DNA of 64,000 nucleotides, taken from IMG/VR virus record IMGVR_UViG_3300043433_000105, positions 1 through 64,000 of that record; one strand, 5' to 3'. The notes under the pieces were generated by a model, which was given only the letters and a program-made list of their open reading frames with translations, was not told the DNA's origin and made no database searches. Origin of the DNA: a virus. Lineage: Duplodnaviria; Heunggongvirae; Uroviricota; Caudoviricetes. Each line of letters starts with the position of its first letter. The stretch's first letter is position 1. The translations under genes and the position numbers were made by a program. Of this stretch, positions 1,754 through 29,820 are shown piece by piece.

Positions 1754-1957
1754 GTGTTTATGTTAGTTGAACTTACAGAAAAAGAAATCATATTCATCCG
1801 ATCTGCAGCACGCGAATACCGCACTGCTGTGCCAAAAATTGTTAAAGAAAGCCCAGGCCGACTAGAACGATGGATTGAAGAGCGTGAACTTTATGACGAT
1901 TCACGCTCAAGTGTGGATCGAAAAATGACCGATATTCTGGCAAACATGGTGAATTAA
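1754..1957 (+). CDS. hypothetical early protein
   Basis: ORF directly after the promoter cassette. Confidence 0.35.
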   Translation: MFMLVELTEKEIIFIRSAAREYRTAVPKIVKESPGRLERWIEERELYDDSRSSVDRKMTDILANMVN

Positions 1958-2154
1958 AATGTTTACAAAGCTAATTAAAAACGAAAGTTACTCGTGTGGT
2001 GAACTTTACAACTGCTGCAGTTGTGGCGGTGGTGACGATGGTAGCTGCGGATGTAGATATTGCTACGATTGTCACGCATGTGAAGCATGCCGAGGTGATG
2101 ACGAATCTGTTGAGTGTGAATTAATTTCAAAGTAATTTAAAAACTTCTGAAAAT

Positions 2155-2197
2155 TGTTGTATAATTCATCCATCGAAATTCAAAAGAGGTAAACAGA
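2155..2197 (+). promoter_or_regulatory. early-type promoter/leader cassette
   Basis: tgTATAATtcatccatcgaaattcaaaagAGGtaaacagaATG. Confidence 0.55.
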
Positions 2198-2638
2198 ATG
2201 ATCTTCCAAAAGCCAACTGAAAACATGCATACCGAAGTTTGGGTGAAAATCGACAACGAAGATACTTTTATTGGCTCGGTGGATCAGATGTATGACTGCT
2301 ATTCATCTGAAATTCGTCGGCTGGAAAAAATCGCAAATGGCCTGTTGGTTAATGCTCGACTCCATGCTGAACGCAAAGCTGCGCAGATTGTCAAGTTGAA
2401 CCTTGCAGACGCACAACTGATTAAGAAAACCAAAGATATTATTTTTCCTTGGGCTGGTGGTTCTTGGCCCGAAGAATTGGAAGTAACTAGCCATATCACC
2501 GGTACTGTGGTAAAATACAAGAAAGCACCATACGAGCATCCTAAGTTTGATGCTGATGGATGGGATGGTATGGGTATGCTGTATGTGCCTGAAAACCAAG
2601 CAGATACTACTTGGACAGTTAAACTCTGGATTGTTTAA
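2198..2638 (+). CDS. hypothetical protein
   Basis: 146-aa ORF after the cassette; no recognisable motif. Confidence 0.45.
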   Translation: MIFQKPTENMHTEVWVKIDNEDTFIGSVDQMYDCYSSEIRRLEKIANGLLVNARLHAERKAAQIVKLNLADAQLIKKTKDIIFPWAGGSWPEELEVTSHITGTVVKYKKAPYEHPKFDADGWDGMGMLYVPENQADTTWTVKLWIV

Positions 2639-2639
2639 T

Positions 2640-2936
2640 ATGAAGGGAAAATTAATGCGTGAATTTAAAACACTCTATGAAGTGACTGGCGATATCAAAG
2701 ACATCAACACATTGTTGGTTTCTCGCACAGAAATGAAAGAGATTAAGAAAGATGGTGAACGACTCGACTTTTTGGGTCAAAACTTCTTTCATCGTGAAAA
2801 CGTGGATTGGGTCACTGGCAACTTGATCAAAGACACGAATATGTGGGTATTCTTTGCACCATCTAATGTGCAAGGTGATATTCGTGTTGTGCTAGATGCT
2901 GCAAAAGAAAAGCAGCGCATCCCTTATGAGAGCTAA
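2640..2936 (+). CDS. hypothetical protein
   Basis: In-frame ATG immediately after the upstream stop (MKGKLMREF...); track ORF 2547-2936 trimmed so it no longer overlaps the upstream gene. Confidence 0.4.
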   Translation: MKGKLMREFKTLYEVTGDIKDINTLLVSRTEMKEIKKDGERLDFLGQNFFHRENVDWVTGNLIKDTNMWVFFAPSNVQGDIRVVLDAAKEKQRIPYES

Positions 2937-3017
2937 GATGTGTTTTTGTGCATACTGATAATTACGGTGTTGATATAATCAGTCGTGATCTAGAACGACA
3001 TTTTGGAATTAAACTAA

Positions 3018-3215
3018 ATGCAGACAATTCGTGAACAAGCAATTCATTACGCGCAAGAGTCTGGCTTTAAAGCCAGTTTAGGTAAAACAGATCGAAATGG
3101 AAAATACACTCCACATGTGAATGCGCTTTTTAAATCTGTGCCAGTGGAGTGGATTGAGACTTTGATTGAAAAAGTTCAACAAGATATGTTGACTAACAAA
3201 CAAAATAGTGTATAA
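3018..3215 (+). CDS. hypothetical protein
   Basis: Preceded by TGATATAAT -10-like element. Confidence 0.35.
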   Translation: MQTIREQAIHYAQESGFKASLGKTDRNGKYTPHVNALFKSVPVEWIETLIEKVQQDMLTNKQNSV

Positions 3216-23520: not shown

Positions 23521-24612
23521 TTAGTCGTTGGCTTCGTCAAACAAAGGTTCTTCTTCACCCGTCTCTTCACTAGCAATCAACTGACCAGCAGACACTTGGA
23601 ATGTGTCACGAACCCACTGTTTGAAGCTCTCGCGTTTGAGAACAACCCCAAGGAATTCCTCTTTGGCAGTAGCCGATTCACGCACTGCACTACCAAGCAT
23701 CTCACCAGTGGTTTTATCGACCAACTGGTACCATCCGTTCTTAGGTTTGATTACTTCACCAGCCTCCAAAGCAAGATCAAGAATACCAGTGTACCTAGAG
23801 ATACCACCTTCGAATGTGACCAACACTTTCAGCTTAGATTTTTCCTTCACGTGGCGACTCTTCTCAATGTTAATCGTGAAGGTATAACCAAGCAAATCAG
23901 TACCATCTTTCTCTTGAGACTTACCCAAAATCCACACAGCATCCGAAGACAACATGCCGCCTTGACCACCAGACATGATAGTCTTGCCGTACATCTTTTG
24001 CTCTTCGTAGGTGTGCTGAATTGCAACCATAGGAATGTCCAACAGAGTCATGAATGGAGTAACCATGCGCCACAAACCCTTCAACGCTTTCGCACGTGAC
24101 ATATCTGTTGCGCTATTTTCATTTTGTGCATTCTCAACTTCACGAATAGAAGCCAAGTTACCAATAGAGTCAATCAAGATAAACACATGATCACCACGCT
24201 TGATACCATCAGCATTCTTACGATTCAACTTATCCATCAAGTCGAATTGCAGTTCTTCAATGTTGGTGATTGGGATATGCACAACACGGTCTGGATCGAT
24301 ACCAGCAGACTCAAAATACTTAGCCGGTGAACCGAATTCCGAATCATAGAACAGGATCACTGCGTCATCATATTTTTTCATATAAGCCGACGCCATAATC
24401 AAAGCATAGTTGCTTTTGAAATGTCGGCTTGGGCCTGCAATGGAGAGTAGGCCTGGGCGCAAACCACCATCGATATCACCAGCCAATGCAATGTTGATCA
24501 AGGGAATATCGGTAACAATCGTATCCTTCTTTGTGAAGAAAGTAGATTCACTTAGAACCGCTACTTCCTTAATCTTTGTTGTCTTAATTAACTTACCCAT
24601 CAATTTATTCAT
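23521..24612 (-). CDS. uvsX: UvsX recombinase (RecA-like)
   Basis: Near co-linear with T4 UvsX (INIALAGDIDGGLRPGLLSIAGPSRHFKSN, LFYDSEFG, FILIDSIGNLAS). Confidence 0.9.
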   Translation of the reverse strand: MNKLMGKLIKTTKIKEVAVLSESTFFTKKDTIVTDIPLINIALAGDIDGGLRPGLLSIAGPSRHFKSNYALIMASAYMKKYDDAVILFYDSEFGSPAKYFESAGIDPDRVVHIPITNIEELQFDLMDKLNRKNADGIKRGDHVFILIDSIGNLASIREVENAQNENSATDMSRAKALKGLWRMVTPFMTLLDIPMVAIQHTYEEQKMYGKTIMSGGQGGMLSSDAVWILGKSQEKDGTDLLGYTFTINIEKSRHVKEKSKLKVLVTFEGGISRYTGILDLALEAGEVIKPKNGWYQLVDKTTGEMLGSAVRESATAKEEFLGVVLKRESFKQWVRDTFQVSAGQLIASEETGEEEPLFDEAND

Positions 24613-24624
24613 ACTTACTTCCTT

Positions 24625-25683
24625 CTAAAAAAACTCGTCTAACGTTACTGCCTCTTCAAGTTCCCAACCAACAGCTTTAAAAATGTTGTTCAATGGATTC
24701 TTAAATGTCTTCTCATATTGCGTAGCACGATCCACATATTTGTGCAGTTTAAACTCCACTGGTAGATCATCAACAAACGCAATTACTTTCTCTCTAATTG
24801 GATTAGGTTCATCAATATAGATGTACTTAATTTTGTCACCTTCACCAATCGCATCGTACTTTTCATAACCATCTTTGACATCTGCCAGTAGTTTGTTGTA
24901 CATGAGAGATGCCTTAGCAGCGATTGGGGTACCTTTGATATAAACCCTGTTTGGATCACGCCACTTTGCCAGATTGTTTGCGCCGCCTGGGAAAGCAATA
25001 TCTGTAATGTTGCAGGTATTAAACTCTTTGCGCACATCCACTGCAAAATCACGTGTCTCTTGCAACTTACCGTCAATAATCAGCTTAACCGCTTCTTTCA
25101 ATCTGTCACGCACTAACTGCGGTGTACTGGATCGAACCACCTCAATACCCATGATTTTGTAATCACCATCTGGGTATCGCACACCTTCATTGTCATAGAC
25201 TTTGATTGCATACTTTTTCTTGGCACACCAGAAACCAGATGAAGAAATTGCTTCACGTTTAAAGTGAATAGTCTTATCAAAATGGTTTTGCACACGCGCG
25301 ATTTCATCAGTGGCTTCATTGATAAATGGTCGCAGTTTTGTTTCCATTAATTTATCAAGCGCATCCACAATCTTCAAGTCTGGTTGATCTTTCCAATACT
25401 TATCAACCACTGGCTTCATATTCAAATAGCAGCTATCCGTATCACTATAGAATGTGTATGTTAGATTGTCAGTTTTGAAGAATTCGTTAAACCGCTTGTC
25501 GCAGTGAGTACCGACCTTCATAATGATGTACTGACCAGAAAGCGTAATAGCCTTACCTAGTCGAGGATCGTAGAACATAAACCCTTGCTGCAAGAAAACG
25601 CCATAGAGACTGTTTGCTGCAAAAAATGTTAAAGTGAAATCGTCAGGTTCACTCCACTTTGAATTAGTGCTGCATGTCCCCAT
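24625..25683 (-). CDS. 43: DNA polymerase, C-terminal fragment (43B-like; motifs B-partial and C)
   Basis: AANSLYG (Kx3NSxYG motif B remnant) and YSDTDSCYL (motif C YGDTDS); starts with its own ATG. Confidence 0.85.
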   Translation of the reverse strand: MGTCSTNSKWSEPDDFTLTFFAANSLYGVFLQQGFMFYDPRLGKAITLSGQYIIMKVGTHCDKRFNEFFKTDNLTYTFYSDTDSCYLNMKPVVDKYWKDQPDLKIVDALDKLMETKLRPFINEATDEIARVQNHFDKTIHFKREAISSSGFWCAKKKYAIKVYDNEGVRYPDGDYKIMGIEVVRSSTPQLVRDRLKEAVKLIIDGKLQETRDFAVDVRKEFNTCNITDIAFPGGANNLAKWRDPNRVYIKGTPIAAKASLMYNKLLADVKDGYEKYDAIGEGDKIKYIYIDEPNPIREKVIAFVDDLPVEFKLHKYVDRATQYEKTFKNPLNNIFKAVGWELEEAVTLDEFF

Positions 25684-27190
25684 GCAGATCAGACTATATC
25701 ATCACCCATTTCTGGGGTTGTGCGCTTCCACTCACTTGAGTGTACTTCCTCTCGGAATAGTCGTTACACCTTCCTACAATAGTAGGCTTGGCTCGGGATT
25801 TTCTGGTCTAGATGTTCCCCGAATTCACACAATTTTCGACAGCAATTACTTGCTGAAGGTGCCAGCTTTTAACACTTTTAACGCATTTTGAAGAATATTC
25901 TTCATTTCAGATTCACGTTTAGCTGCTTTATATGCAGCGCGTAACTCGTCGTCTGTCATTTCAGATAGACTTTTCATTTTTAATAAATACTCCTGTAATA
26001 AACCACCATAAAGAGAATTAACACTGCAAACTGAAGAAATAATCCACTACGCTAACAAACATATAACAGATTTAGACTACTTTATATGGTATCTACTTTA
26101 CTGTTATGCGTTTGAAGAAACAAAAGGAACTGCAACAGAATCCCATCATATCTTACCTAAAAATAAATTTCCTGAATTTATAAAAATAAAGGACGCACCT
26201 TGGAATAGAGCAAATCTTTCTCAATTCAATCATTATATAGCTCATTATATCCTTGCTAAAGCTATGAGTCAACCATCAACAATAGCCGCATTTAATTTAA
26301 TGGGTAGATGTGCTAAAACAGAGTCTGAATTAATAATAAAAGCTAATTTATATTCTGAATTTAGAAATCAGATCGCAATAAACAATTCACTAAGAAACAA
26401 AGGTCGAAAACTGACTGCATCTCAGCTAGAAAAAATGTCAACTCATATGAAAAATAAAGTCATAGTCCACTATCCCGATTCTGATACGAATTTTCAAATT
26501 GACCGCGACGACCTTCGTTATCTAAACGGTGACGTGATTTTATGCCAAGTTGGTAGAATCCATACTGATAAAACAAAACAAAAGATGTCAGATAACGGTA
26601 TTAAAGATTGTATACAAATTTATAACATATCTAAGCCGGATAAAACTCGTTTCATCCCAAATACTGAAGATATACCACAAGGGTTTGATATCGGCAACCC
26701 ATCACACTCTAGTATTGCAGTAGAAAGATTCACTGGCGCACATCATTTTTACAACCCAACAACGAAAGAAAGTAAACGATTTAAAGTAACCGAAAATATT
26801 CCAGATGGGTTTATTCAAACAAGAGATGGATACGACAACCCATGGAAGGGAGTAGTAATCTACAAAAATTGGGTAACAAACCAAACAGAAACACATCCTA
26901 AATTAGATGAACTGCCGTTTGGTGTATCTGAAAATACATGTAAACATGCATTTATTTTTGAAGGTAAAATTACTTTTAGCCTTCAACGATTATTACGAGT
27001 TCACCCAGATAAATTTAACAATTCAGTAATTCAAAAGTTAATTCGTCTTGACGCTCCTAAGAAAATTTTTAGCTATAAAGTTTCACCATGTATTAGAAAT
27101 TATATACAAACCTTTGAATTTTACAATGACATACCTTTAGTGATACTGCCAATTTATGAAGTAGTTGATAAAATTACTCCAGAAAATTGG
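25684..27190. mobile_element. insertion splitting gene 43 (carries an HNH-type ORF on the opposite strand)
   Basis: 1.5 kb between the end of the pol N-terminal ORF and the start of the pol C-terminal ORF. Confidence 0.55.
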
Positions 27191-27196
27191 CTATAA
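26021..27196 (+). CDS. HNH-family homing endonuclease-like protein
   Basis: First ATG is at 26264, but the frame is open back to the stop at 26018 and encodes ESHHILPKNKF...WNRANLSQFNHYIAHYIL (H-N-H motif) upstream of that ATG. Confidence 0.55.
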   Translation, partial: TLQTEEIIHYANKHITDLDYFIWYLLYCYAFEETKGTATESHHILPKNKFPEFIKIKDAPWNRANLSQFNHYIAHYILAKAMSQPSTIAAFNLMGRCAKTESELIIKANLYSEFRNQIAINNSLRNKGRKLTASQLEKMSTHMKNKVIVHYPDSDTNFQIDRDDLRYLNGDVILCQVGRIHTDKTKQKMSDNGIKDCIQIYNISKPDKTRFIPNTEDIPQGFDIGNPSHSSIAVERFTGAHHFYNPTTKESKRFKVTENIPDGFIQTRDGYDNPWKGVVIYKNWVTNQTETHPKLDELPFGVSENTCKHAFIFEGKITFSLQRLLRVHPDKFNNSVIQKLIRLDAPKKIFSYKVSPCIRNYIQTFEFYNDIPLVILPIYEVVDKITPENWL

Positions 27197-28702
27197 CTCA
27201 ATGCCTCGGCGTTTTGCTTCTTCTTCAATATCCACAGACGTTTGCTTATAGCGCAACATTTCGTTCTTAGCAATTTTACGACCACCTAATGCAAAGTCAA
27301 CTACACGAGGAACGATTCCCTTCACATCCTTTCTAAACATGGCTCCGTTAGCAGCCAGTGTAAAGTCTTCGGTGATACCAAAATCTTTCAACGTCTTACC
27401 AAGTAGCATTTCATCTACAGTCACACCTTCTTTGACACCAACCAAAGTCTCTGGAGACAGGTTTAGAGCCTTCATGATGCTTGGGTATAGCGATGCAGCA
27501 TCAATGCTGATAAGCCACGCATAGAGGCCAGGAATTGGCTCAGAGACGTATGCACCTGGGATCGACTCATTACCATTGCTCTGACGTTCAATATTTACGA
27601 ATTTTTTCTCATTCAAGAGCATCGACTGGATACTACATTCCCAATACCGAACCGGCGAATAAACATCCTCAAAACAGCACTTCATCGTGTATGCCAGCAT
27701 CACACCCAAAGCAATTAAACCCTTGGCCTTATCCAACTGAGTCATGCGCTTTGTGTCAATTACGTTGTACTGTGCAAACGTTTCAATATGCTCTTCGGCT
27801 TCGCTAAACTGCTTAAACGTTGTGCATGGGTTTTCCAGCTTACCAACACCCAGATTGACTTTGGCTAAATGATCAAGACTGTATTTTTCTTCCTTTTGAA
27901 GAACAAACTTCCGGTACATTGCTTGAATGTCATAATGTGTGCGACCAACAATTGTGTATTCTTTGCGCACTTCCTCATCAATCTCATATTCACGTTCATC
28001 AATGATGCCAAATGGGGACAGGCGATTAGCCTCATCGTCACCCAATACGCGATTAATACGGTTAATCAAATATGGTACATCGAAGAATTCAGAATAGAAA
28101 CCATAGATAATATCAGGGTCTTCCTCTTGGATATAGCGGATGATTGCTTCAAGTAATTCAGCCTCGGTTTCAAACCGAACCATCTTACATCCCTCATGCT
28201 CCATAATCGTGATAGGTGCAGTGGTGTAGCTCACCATTTCACCAGTGGCATGATTCTCAAATGCAATGTGTGTAATTTCTTCCAATGCCAGATATGGGTC
28301 AGGTACACCTGGAGGGCCGTTAACACCAACACGAGTTTCAATATCAAAGCCTGTAGCCTTTAACTCAGACAACATAACCTGCATAGGTTCTTGGTAGTTC
28401 AAAGCAATGAATTCGTACTGCCACCGGTTAGGCTCGTATCCATACATCTTTATGGTGCCTTTATATTGCTTCACATACTCACGTGCTGCAGGTATAGTAT
28501 CGAACTTGCGAGGCTTCAGATTTTTACCGTAAATGCTTTTGTATTCACTCTCTTCTTTAGTCTCAAAGTAAATTGTCGGTGAGAATGGAATTTTCCCATG
28601 GACACGTACTTTCTTCCCATTTTTATGTTCGTAGCCGCGATAATAGATTTTTCCATATCGGGAACTCACATGGGTGTAAAACTGGTTAATATCTGGGTTC
28701 AT
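27191..28702 (-). CDS. 43: DNA polymerase, N-terminal fragment (43A-like; exonuclease domain and motif A)
   Basis: Exo I FDIETR; motif A DAASLYPSI; N-terminus MNPDINQFY...YYRGYEHKNGK parallels T4 gp43; start chosen at internal M19. Confidence 0.85.
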   Translation of the reverse strand: MNPDINQFYTHVSSRYGKIYYRGYEHKNGKKVRVHGKIPFSPTIYFETKEESEYKSIYGKNLKPRKFDTIPAAREYVKQYKGTIKMYGYEPNRWQYEFIALNYQEPMQVMLSELKATGFDIETRVGVNGPPGVPDPYLALEEITHIAFENHATGEMVSYTTAPITIMEHEGCKMVRFETEAELLEAIIRYIQEEDPDIIYGFYSEFFDVPYLINRINRVLGDDEANRLSPFGIIDEREYEIDEEVRKEYTIVGRTHYDIQAMYRKFVLQKEEKYSLDHLAKVNLGVGKLENPCTTFKQFSEAEEHIETFAQYNVIDTKRMTQLDKAKGLIALGVMLAYTMKCCFEDVYSPVRYWECSIQSMLLNEKKFVNIERQSNGNESIPGAYVSEPIPGLYAWLISIDAASLYPSIMKALNLSPETLVGVKEGVTVDEMLLGKTLKDFGITEDFTLAANGAMFRKDVKGIVPRVVDFALGGRKIAKNEMLRYKQTSVDIEEEAKRRGIEL

Positions 28703-28857
28703 TTTAAATTTACATAAATTTACACAAAATTTACAGAATAGAAGTTCTGTAAACAATAAATACTATTGTAGACCATTTATGTCTACTGTCAACAAAAATG
28801 TCCTTCGCGGTACTGCAAATACCCAAGGACTCTAACAGTTAAAAAGGAACTATCAGC

Positions 28858-29820
28858 ATGTCTATTTATTGCGTCTATCTTACCAGCTATCGTGGTAACA
28901 AACTCCCACCATTTTACATCGGATCAACTTCTGTTGATCGGATATTGAATGAAAATTATAATGGTAGTGTATCGTCTAAAATATATAAAAACATTTGGAT
29001 TAAAGAAAGATCATTAAACCCGCATCTTTTCAAAACTGTAATTTTAAAAACATTTGACACTAGAAATGAAGCAACAGAAAAAGAAAATAAACTGCAAAAA
29101 GCAGTTAATGCGCCAAACAATCCACTCTATATTAACAGAGCATTTGCATCAAAAATGGCATATGACGAGACTTATAATCCACTCAAGGGAATCGCATCCC
29201 CATTAAGGGGTAAAAAATACCCCAAGAGAACTGGGTCATCATTAGAAAATATTCGCGCAGGTGCTAAAAGGCGAAAAAAGATGTCACTTGAAACGAAAAA
29301 CAATGCGGATCGAAAACGTGCCGAAACAAGAAAACTGAATAATACACCTGGCTCAATGAAGGGTAAAACCCATAAGCCTGAGACTATTGCACGGTTTAAA
29401 AAAATCAGAAACGAATCCCCGCCATGGAATAAAGGTATGACAATGTTAGATGTAAATCCTGATTACATAAACCCAAATAAAGGGAATACGATATCAGACG
29501 AGCAGAGAAAAAAGATATCAGATGCAAAACATAACAATTGTCCTGAGTGGTCTGAGTCGCATAAAGAATCACATCGGTTAGCGGTTTCAGGTTCAAATTC
29601 TAATACTGCTGTAATTATTGAAATTTTCGATGACCAAGGTATTTTGCAACACACAACCCACGGAAATTTTATCAAATATTGTGATGATAATGGGCTACCG
29701 GAATCAGCATTAAGAGTTTCATATAAAAATGGCGGGTCACCGATTAAAATGAACCACCATTTAGATAAAGTTGTACCCTTTAGAGGATGGTATGCTATTA
29801 AGAAATATCCCCAAAAATAG
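28858..29820 (+). CDS. GIY-YIG homing endonuclease (Seg-like) with NUMOD3-type repeats
   Basis: IYCVY...YIGST GIY-YIG motif; repeated basic KGKxHKPETIARFKK / NKG motifs. Confidence 0.8.
   Translation: MSIYCVYLTSYRGNKLPPFYIGSTSVDRILNENYNGSVSSKIYKNIWIKERSLNPHLFKTVILKTFDTRNEATEKENKLQKAVNAPNNPLYINRAFASKMAYDETYNPLKGIASPLRGKKYPKRTGSSLENIRAGAKRRKKMSLETKNNADRKRAETRKLNNTPGSMKGKTHKPETIARFKKIRNESPPWNKGMTMLDVNPDYINPNKGNTISDEQRKKISDAKHNNCPEWSESHKESHRLAVSGSNSNTAVIIEIFDDQGILQHTTHGNFIKYCDDNGLPESALRVSYKNGGSPIKMNHHLDKVVPFRGWYAIKKYPQK

Follow-up and report, generated by a model that had tools for sequence, protein, structure and literature searches.

The closest described relatives of the arrangement reported here are found in gene 43, which encodes the family B DNA polymerase of T4-like phages. 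In Aeromonas salmonicida phage 25 (NC_008208) this gene consists of the cistron 43A, the homing-endonuclease gene (HEG) seg43(25), and the cistron 43B, which contains the group IA2 intron 25.g43B (Petrov, Ratnayaka, Karam, J Mol Biol 2010, as cited in PMC2988022 and PMC2993671). The intron has no HEG of its own and, according to PMC2993671 and PMC2988022, is predicted to use the free-standing HEG for its mobility. Here, we analyse a locus at 24625-28702 of a 64,000-nucleotide stretch of viral DNA (IMG/VR record IMGVR_UViG_3300043433_000105, positions 1 to 64,000; referred to below as the window), which we consider, with a probability of about 0.8 for the explanation as a whole, to be gene 43, harbouring a composite mobile cassette, of an uncultured T4-like phage. 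Similar arrangements have been published for Aeromonas phage 25 and are annotated in Acinetobacter Lazarusvirus; the locus is a new example, and the mechanism is not new.

In phage 25, as in the window, the polymerase is split at the same position in the finger-tip, a free-standing HEG lies between the cistrons, and 43B contains, near motif B, a group I intron of the same structural family that lacks an open reading frame (ORF); the P7.1/P7.2 region is common to both introns and the 3' hairpin covaries. The phage 25 HEG is of the GIY-YIG (seg-like) type and lies on the same strand as the polymerase, whereas the HEG of the window is Mob-like HNH and lies on the opposite strand. Moreover, the phage 25 intron follows NSLYGAL, 7 codons downstream of the window site, which is inside KV/SANSLYG. 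The two polymerases are only distantly related, and the mutated HEG start described below belongs to the window.

Members of Lazarusvirus (vB_AbaM_Lazarus MN782535, AB-Navy4 OL770259 and relatives) carry the annotations 'split DNA polymerase 43A/43B' and 'putative intron associated homing endonuclease'. They share with the window the split point and a homologous HNH HEG (~32% amino acid identity over 62% of the query), antisense and abutting the 43B start, and its leader resembles that of the window in containing TATAAATA-like and CACCATA.AGAG.ATT.AC.ATG elements. They differ in that their 43B has no group I intron, the insert is ~3 kb long with five extra small ORFs, and a long finger-tip of the T-even type is native to their polymerase.

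Two polymerase subunits, A and B, separated at the same split point, are also present in Synechococcus phage S-CREM2 (OR473000). There the first subunit ends with ...IKEELKRRGL and the second begins with MDLSKLSNDELLALKEQTEKE..., as compared with ...DIEEEAKRRGIEL and MKSLSEMTDDELRAAYKAAKRE... in the window; contiguous relatives from both clades are devoid of these segments. The S-CREM2 gap (L011, 2964-3346) contains a 98-amino acid ORF of unknown function and an 86-nucleotide GC-rich spacer, and no recognisable HEG, intron or Rfam match was found in it. A free-standing HEG beside an intron without a working HEG, as in the window, is known from the psbA intron of cyanophage S-PM2 with F-CphI and from T4 MobE with nrdB (PMC2790892, PMC6083498, PMC2988022), the nrdB intron homing in trans by means of MobE (PMC2790892). 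Cleavage was demonstrated experimentally in those two systems, whereas for the window it is proposed from the sequence, and the window HEG additionally splits its host gene. Finally, the nrdA gene of Aeromonas phage Aeh1, split by mobE (PMC3045599), resembles the window in that a Mob-type HNH HEG divides an essential replication-related gene whose products reassemble; the host gene is a different one and there is no intron.

Results

The anatomy of the locus is directly visible in the window. It comprises four parts: 43A (28702..27191, minus strand), the HEG (26024..27196, plus strand), 43B from ATG 25977 (minus strand), and a group I intron (25871..25620) inside 43B. The features are as follows:

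27191..28702, minus: 43A cistron, N-terminal subunit of 503 amino acids, with exonuclease domain, motif A and first fingers helix, ending ...VDIEEEAKRRGIEL before the stop
26024..27196, plus: free-standing Mob-like HNH HEG, 390 codons, antisense to the polymerase; CTG start here, ATG in relatives
26138..26254, plus: HNH catalytic motif, HEG residues 39-77, ESHHILPK...PWNRANL...NHYIAHYIL, from the alignment with P0002 and P0003
25982..26015, plus: HEG 5' leader, with T4-late-promoter-like AATAAATA (25982-25989) and Shine-Dalgarno-like AAAGAG (26010-26015); identical or nearly so in L001
25990..25994, minus: 43B ribosome-binding site AGGAG, 12 nucleotides upstream of ATG 25977; surrounding stretch AGGAGTATTTATTAAAAATG identical in L001
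25872..25977, minus: 43B exon 1, 35 codons and the first base of the next, MKSLSEMTDDELRAAYKAAKRESEMKNILQNALKV; holds the motif B lysine; kept in L001 and L002
25620..25871, minus: predicted ORF-less group I intron, 252 nucleotides, IA2-like (RF00028); 5' splice site after U25872, terminal G 25620
25633..25653, minus: terminal intron hairpin, P9.1/P9.2-like, AGUGAA-CCUGACGAU-UUCACU, downstream of the Rfam model end
24625..25619, minus: 43B exon 2, (S)ANSLYG..., motif C YSDTDSCYL, thumb, C-terminus and stop

The same layout occurs in two independent assemblies and is therefore not an assembly artefact: L002, a contig from another sample, with 11 differences to the window over 5196 positions, and L001, a related 183-kb contig. 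The first-pass annotation, made from the letters of the window alone, described the ORFs correctly, including the minus-strand one with exonuclease motifs and motif A (ISIDAASLYPSI) that ends at 27191, as the ORF list and Pfam confirm, and its view of the polymerase as two cistrons of the 43A/43B type agrees with the Pfam coverage and the split point. On the other hand, it misread the anatomy of the 43B start and of motif B, overlooking the intron and the 35-codon exon; a 43-codon minus-strand ORF (25977..25846) beginning with MKSLSEMTDDELRAAYKAAKRESEMKNILQNALKV is in the ORF list and is absent from its account. Megablast of the whole locus against phage genomes gave short intron-core matches only and no close relative.

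When all Rfam families were scanned over 24000-29500 at E<=1, RF00028 was the sole match (25881..25670, minus strand; 76.1 bits with a gathering score of 50; E 1.3e-18; full model 1-253, the catalytic core P3-P9). The earlier proposal to look for a group I intron around 25684-26020 with a covariance model thus had a positive outcome, and homologous matches were obtained in L002 (76 bits) and L001 (70 bits). The intron 3' end lies 50 nucleotides past the end of the Rfam model. An internal guide sequence, 5'-GCUGGCAC-3' at 25866..25859, pairs with the last exon bases GUGU to form P1 (GUGU:GCAC-G), in which the wobble U25872.G25862 sets the 5' splice site. P10 is formed by CAGC (25619..25616) with GCUG (25866-25863), contiguous with P1 on the guide sequence, and by this pairing the terminal G is fixed at 25620. 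When ...AAA GUG U is joined to CA GCA AAC AGU..., the reading frame is kept and ALKVSANSLYG, a canonical KxxxNSLYG motif B, results; the predicted junction of the ligated exons is AAAGUGU/CAGCAAAC, that is ...UUAAAAGUGU/CAGCAAACAGUCUC. Spacing and length of the spliced motif are the same as in 11 uninterrupted relatives, which have ALKV(A/M)ANS(L/F)YG or ALKTGANSLYG.

The extension beyond the Rfam model was assessed in an alignment of five introns (the window, L001, Aeromonas phage 25, E. coli phage G2285 and Klebsiella phage Roth32), in which only the terminal hairpin was scored. All 30 of its 30 cells were paired, five of the six pairs had changed on both sides, and none of 500 shuffles reached the observed score. 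The annotated group IA2 intron of phage 25 (NC_008208) likewise runs ~64 nucleotides past the model end, through the same hairpin. The 3' end is thus placed at 25620 by P10, the in-frame motif B, its spacing in relatives, an in-frame TAA in L001 and the covarying hairpin taken together, and the predicted intron is 25871..25620, 252 nucleotides without an ORF. The 43B pre-mRNA would have to self-splice this intron out to restore motif B (K-V-S/A-N-S-L-Y-G). Thus, motif B is not cut by a 1.5-kb insertion, as had been thought; its lysine half is in the 35-codon mini-exon 25977..25872. Nor does the intron rejoin 43A to 43B at the RNA level, another earlier suggestion, as it joins the two exons of 43B only.

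Two other splice choices were rejected. Use of the Rfam end G25670 with U25871 is in frame in the window, yet it adds 17 residues to motif B (ALKVFTNSKWSEPDDFTLTFFAANSLYG) and runs into the in-frame TAA in L001; a splice at G25617 also keeps the frame, but the resulting KVSNSLYG is wrongly spaced and P10 is lost.

A related intron was noticed in E. coli phage vB_EcoM_G2285 (L012, MK327933; Mosigvirus), the polymerase of which (1950-3210) is annotated 'unable to determine intron/exon boundaries'. It holds an 83.6-bit group I intron with an internal 273-amino acid ORF and a 3' extension homologous to those of phage 25 and the window, by means of which its boundaries could be fixed as was done here.

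The polymerase itself appears intact. The 43A start at ATG 28702 agrees with the N-termini of homologues; 43A matches Pfam DNA_pol_B_exo1 and positions 23-142 of the DNA_pol_B profile, and spliced 43B matches positions 144-342 of the latter. Concatenated, 43A and spliced 43B align in one piece to contiguous polymerases of T4-like cyanophages (99% coverage, 36-40% identity) and, in a single alignment, to residues 393-751 of RB69 gp43. Exon 1 of 43B there matches fingers helix P including K560, on which the lysine of ALKVSANSLYG falls, and the break between ...RRGIEL, the end of 43A, and MKSLSE... corresponds to the tip of the fingers domain. Annotations of phage 25, Lazarus and S-CREM2 divide the polymerase (43A/43B or subunit A/B) at this point too, and the catalytic motifs Exo, A, B (after splicing) and C are all present. 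43A is 88-90% identical in amino acids to the polymerases of L001 and L004 (the latter uninterrupted). Since the exons of the window and L001 are more alike in amino acids than in nucleotides (88-90% and ~78% identity, respectively), and only two of the eight single-nucleotide polymorphisms that distinguish exon 2 from that of L002 alter the protein, the exons are evidently under purifying selection.

The plus-strand gene between the cistrons ends within 43A, with a 6-nucleotide overlap (HEG stop 27194-27196, 43A stop 27193-27191). Its ORF 26264..27196, with an upstream open frame coding for an HNH signature (ESHHILPK...WNRANL...NHYIAHYIL), had been recognised in the first-pass annotation, which placed the beginning of the open frame at 26021; the frame is in fact open from 26012 (TAA at 26009-26011). 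The extended frame matches phrog_655, homing endonuclease (1.7e-19), and phrog_12434, HNH endonuclease (2.1e-11), and its tblastn matches are annotated HNH/mobile endonucleases, mobC and F-LimIX of T4-like phages. Along 97% of its length it is 49% identical to P0002. When it is aligned with P0002 and P0003, residues E39, H41, H42, I43, L44, P45, K46, P59, W60, N61, L65, H70, A73, H74, Y75, I76 and L77 are invariant, among them the catalytic HH(41-42), N61 and H70/H74, and the same HNH motif (HH, N, H) occurs in the Lazarus HEG. Upstream, AATAAATA is located 34 nucleotides from the HEG start, and Lazarus has TATAAATA and CACCATACAGAGGATTTACCATG at the corresponding leader position. The HEG is probably transcribed from this putative late-type promoter. 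A sigma-70-like site at 26272..26244, upstream of 43B, was discounted; it is not conserved in L001 and overlies codons of the HNH motif.

The start codon of this HEG is directly seen to be substituted. Codon 26024 is CTG in the window and ATG in L002, L001 and the Lazarus homologues, and across the whole HEG the window and L002 differ only in this A-to-C change. The L001 homologue (49% identical) has ATG at the aligned position, preceded by the same AAAGAG, and the Lazarus homologue (32% identical) has CACCATACAGAGGATTTACCATG where the window has CACCATAAAGAGAATTAACACTG. Moreover, PHROG alignments begin at profile positions 23-43, from which a full-length protein would be expected to begin close to where the frame opens. 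Thus, the window lacks the canonical start codon of a Mob-like HEG, and this single change is the reason why the HNH motif lies upstream of the first ATG. It had been stated earlier that ATA and ATC were the sole near-cognate starts; CTG 26024, which precedes ATG 26264 by exactly 80 codons, corresponds in the alignment to the homologues' ATG. The gene is, as previously supposed, an HNH HEG with a defective or weak start, and of the suggested unusual or decaying initiation the defect holds, the cause being a one-base ATG-to-CTG change; the upstream in-frame ATG that resequencing might have revealed is, in effect, provided by L002. CUG initiation in bacteria reaches a few per cent of AUG at most, and the window allele would be either very weakly translated or newly inactivated.

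A presence/absence polymorphism of the entire block is directly observed among related contigs. L003, L004 and L005 have an uninterrupted 843-amino acid polymerase, whereas L001 has, as does the window, 43A, antisense HEG, 43B exon 1, intron and exon 2, in that order. The exons of L001 and L004 are 92-100% identical in nucleotides (both being ~70-90% identical to the window), and the two contigs differ by one contiguous block, which extends from just after ...KNEML in 43A to the intron 3' splice site and takes in a 43B exon 1 that has diverged; the ~120 nucleotides that follow in the 3' flank are somewhat less identical. All 11 uninterrupted relatives lack HEG and intron, and all three carriers have both, in a small sample in which the carriers represent two independent lineages (window/L002 and L001). 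A metagenome scan with 43B found three further loci only, all uninterrupted. Because relatives with 92-100% identical exons hold either the whole block or an uninterrupted 843-amino acid polymerase, the HEG-exon-intron block bears the signature of homing and is best read as a presence/absence mobile cassette.

Discussion

The features described above suggest how such a cassette might function. gp43A would end at the finger tip, gp43B would be made from its own ribosome-binding site and ATG 25977, and the two would assemble non-covalently. According to PMC2988022, citing Petrov 2010, gp43A and gp43B of Aeromonas phage 25/44RR co-purify and are active, and an engineered Pfu polymerase split at the finger tip remains active (PMC3061061). 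The HEG would be expressed from the strand that does not encode the early/middle replication genes and, during co-infection, would cut unsplit, intron-less polymerase alleles near motif B and the intron insertion site. In such 'collaborative' or trans homing, repair would transfer the HEG together with the 43A-tail and 43B-head codons, exon 1 and the intron in a single piece, and the carrier genome would be protected by the intron, which interrupts the target. We propose this mechanism by analogy with phage 25, T4 MobE/nrdB and F-CphI/psbA.

Several observations weigh against this proposal. The HEG gave no Pfam or NCBIfam match and only chance matches in a PDB sequence search, and an AlphaFold2 model of its residues 1-140, built on a 3-sequence alignment only, had a mean pLDDT of 53, too low to confirm the HNH fold. 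The late-promoter octamer is not enriched in the window, and promoter and terminator scans were not above chance. Co-occurrence of HEG and intron is weakly sampled, with two carrier lineages only. Furthermore, phages of the Lazarus type carry a homologous HEG without any intron, which indicates that this HEG family does not need one. Finally, between the window and L001 the HEG has diverged far more (49% amino acid identity) than the intron core (~92% in nucleotides), and this inequality would fit separate histories as well as fast evolution of the HEG.

The last two points form the basis of the main rival explanation, in which HEG and intron are independent neighbours, ~150 nucleotides apart. 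According to it, intron-less homing takes the HEG to the finger-tip region, and the intron, serving the HEG neither as target nor as immunity device, is either a long-standing resident or was carried along passively in the co-conversion tract. In its favour, the homologous Lazarusvirus HEG occupies the same split point, antisense, without an intron, and free-standing HEGs typically cut hundreds of base pairs from their own gene (PMC2988022). We nevertheless consider this explanation rather unlikely. In the window clade the elements are either both present or both absent (3 carriers versus 11 empty alleles), exon 1, which separates them, has likewise diverged from its counterpart in the empty allele, indicating inheritance of the block as one unit, and phage 25 provides a precedent (PMC2993671).

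A separate problem is whether the phage really has ATG and a fully active HEG, CTG 26024 having arisen through faulty sequencing or assembly or from a variant present in a minority of reads. A single base is concerned, L002, so close to the window, has ATG, and the rest of the HEG ORF is intact. On the other hand, the other 10 window/L002 differences look like ordinary population polymorphisms, and the ORF given for the window contig in the source database (P0001, 310 amino acids from ATG 26264) shows that the C belongs to the deposited assembly, which makes an error rather improbable. As to those differences, eight of the 11 cluster at 24667-25312, in the 3' two-thirds of 43B exon 2, and may represent a small recombination tract.

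The remaining alternatives were rejected. That 43A and 43B are rejoined by a split intein (a 'fractured gene'), by trans-splicing or through a large HEG-containing intron has a negligible chance of being right: split inteins flanking HEGs in fractured genes are known from metagenomes (PMC2677866), and uvsX of L001 seems to show such an arrangement, but no Hint/intein signature was found by Pfam in the proteins of the locus, the ~16 amino acids of 43A tail and ~26 of 43B head past the shared core both align to the polymerase's own finger tip, the overlap of the 43A and HEG stops leaves no room for the 5' half of an intron, and no second RNA family was detected in the Rfam scan. Since, in addition, 43B has its own AGGAG and ATG, nothing suggests rejoining at either the RNA or the protein level. 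It is just as implausible that the C-terminal subunit starts at ATG 25683 within motif B, with a single unspliced insertion of 1.5 kb between the ORFs, as the first-pass annotation had it: the mechanical ORF 25683..24625, with AANSLYG and YSDTDSCYL, does exist, but its protein reads FFAANSLYG, with F in place of the invariant motif B lysine, the ATG is in the P9 hairpin (CUGCAUGGGGACAUGCAG) of the 76-bit group I intron, the first 21 codons are intron RNA, overlying a covarying hairpin, and are broken by an in-frame TAA in L001, and no Shine-Dalgarno sequence precedes 25683. A 43B started there would begin with MGTCSTN..., and the peptide MGTCSTNSKWSEPDDF would be diagnostic of it. Finally, the double interruption of the polymerase gene and the mutated HEG start might point to a decaying pseudogene in a phage relying on another polymerase, but all exons are intact and conserved in three assemblies, every catalytic motif is retained, and amino acid identity exceeds nucleotide identity between lineages, so we give this hardly any credence.

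Returning to the composite cassette, the ends of the two subunits require comment. Contiguous relatives in the clade and contiguous cyanophage polymerases have a short finger-tip (...KQLYVDTGD-AQYKVKSDIQNVLQNALK...), whereas split alleles have extra sequence on both sides of the break, resembling the ends of the S-CREM2 subunits and the long finger-tip of RB69, phage 25 and Lazarus. The flanking exon sequence thus seems to arrive with the cassette itself, presumably co-converted from a donor with a long finger-tip. It is conceivable, though we hold it for now to be somewhat short of probable, that the moving unit is a 'gene-splitting module' composed of the stop and 43A-tail codons, the antisense HEG with its late promoter, the ribosome-binding site, ATG and codons of the 43B head, and the protective intron, that its exon adaptors derive from a T-even-type polymerase with a long finger-tip, and that it has turned contiguous, short-finger-tip polymerases into two-subunit ones in no fewer than two distant lineages of T4-like phages, represented by the window clade and by phage S-CREM2 (Kyanoviridae). 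Were this so, the ATG-to-CTG change would be the first step of HEG decay leaving a permanently split polymerase, as in S-CREM2 and 44RR.

The locus provides an independent case, from an uncultured T4-like lineage, of a free-standing HEG combined with an ORF-less intron and a split essential polymerase, which differs from Aeromonas phage 25 in nuclease family, HEG orientation and intron site. The pair of filled and empty alleles (L001/L004, ~95% identical) and the pair of start-intact and start-mutant HEGs (L002/window) allow direct tests of collaborative homing, of co-conversion tracts and of the cycle of HEG decay. In practical terms, standard pipelines would mis-call the locus in three ways, giving a 310-amino acid ORF without the nuclease domain, a 352-amino acid ORF starting in the intron, and no 35-codon exon.

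Several observations concern the surroundings of the polymerase gene. A sigma-70-like promoter candidate, TTGACA-16-TACAAT (28765..28792, minus strand; 11 of 12 consensus positions), lies ~60 nucleotides upstream of the 43A start and overlaps a terminator-like hairpin at 28786-28768; the count of sigma-70-like sites in the region is not above that expected from shuffling, and the site is a candidate only. Divergent from the polymerase start is a second HEG-like ORF (28858-29820, plus strand; 320 amino acids; N-terminus IYCVYLTSYRGNKLPPFYIGST) of the GIY-YIG/seg-like type, which matches phrog_314, phrog_10820 and, weakly, Pfam GIY-YIG; it is present in L002 and in L003-L005 (72% amino acid identity) and not in L001. 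On the other side, the polymerase stop at 24625 and the uvsX start at 24612 are 12 nucleotides apart, and uvsX (23521-24612) is intact in the window. A GIY-YIG-like ORF is situated between polymerase and uvsX in L004 (8111-9061) and L001 (3814-4698), and not in the window. In L001 (1258-3817) uvsX itself is in three parts: a RecA_N ORF running into a Hint-like ...VEIGCMHGSTQIMTTTG..., a 363-amino acid ORF with no Pfam match, and a T4_UVSX_C ORF, which together look like a 'fractured gene' of split intein plus HEG. The free-standing endonuclease-like ORFs near replication genes in this phage clade (26024-27196 and 28858-29820 in the window, 10910-11665 in L001) are all on the opposite strand.

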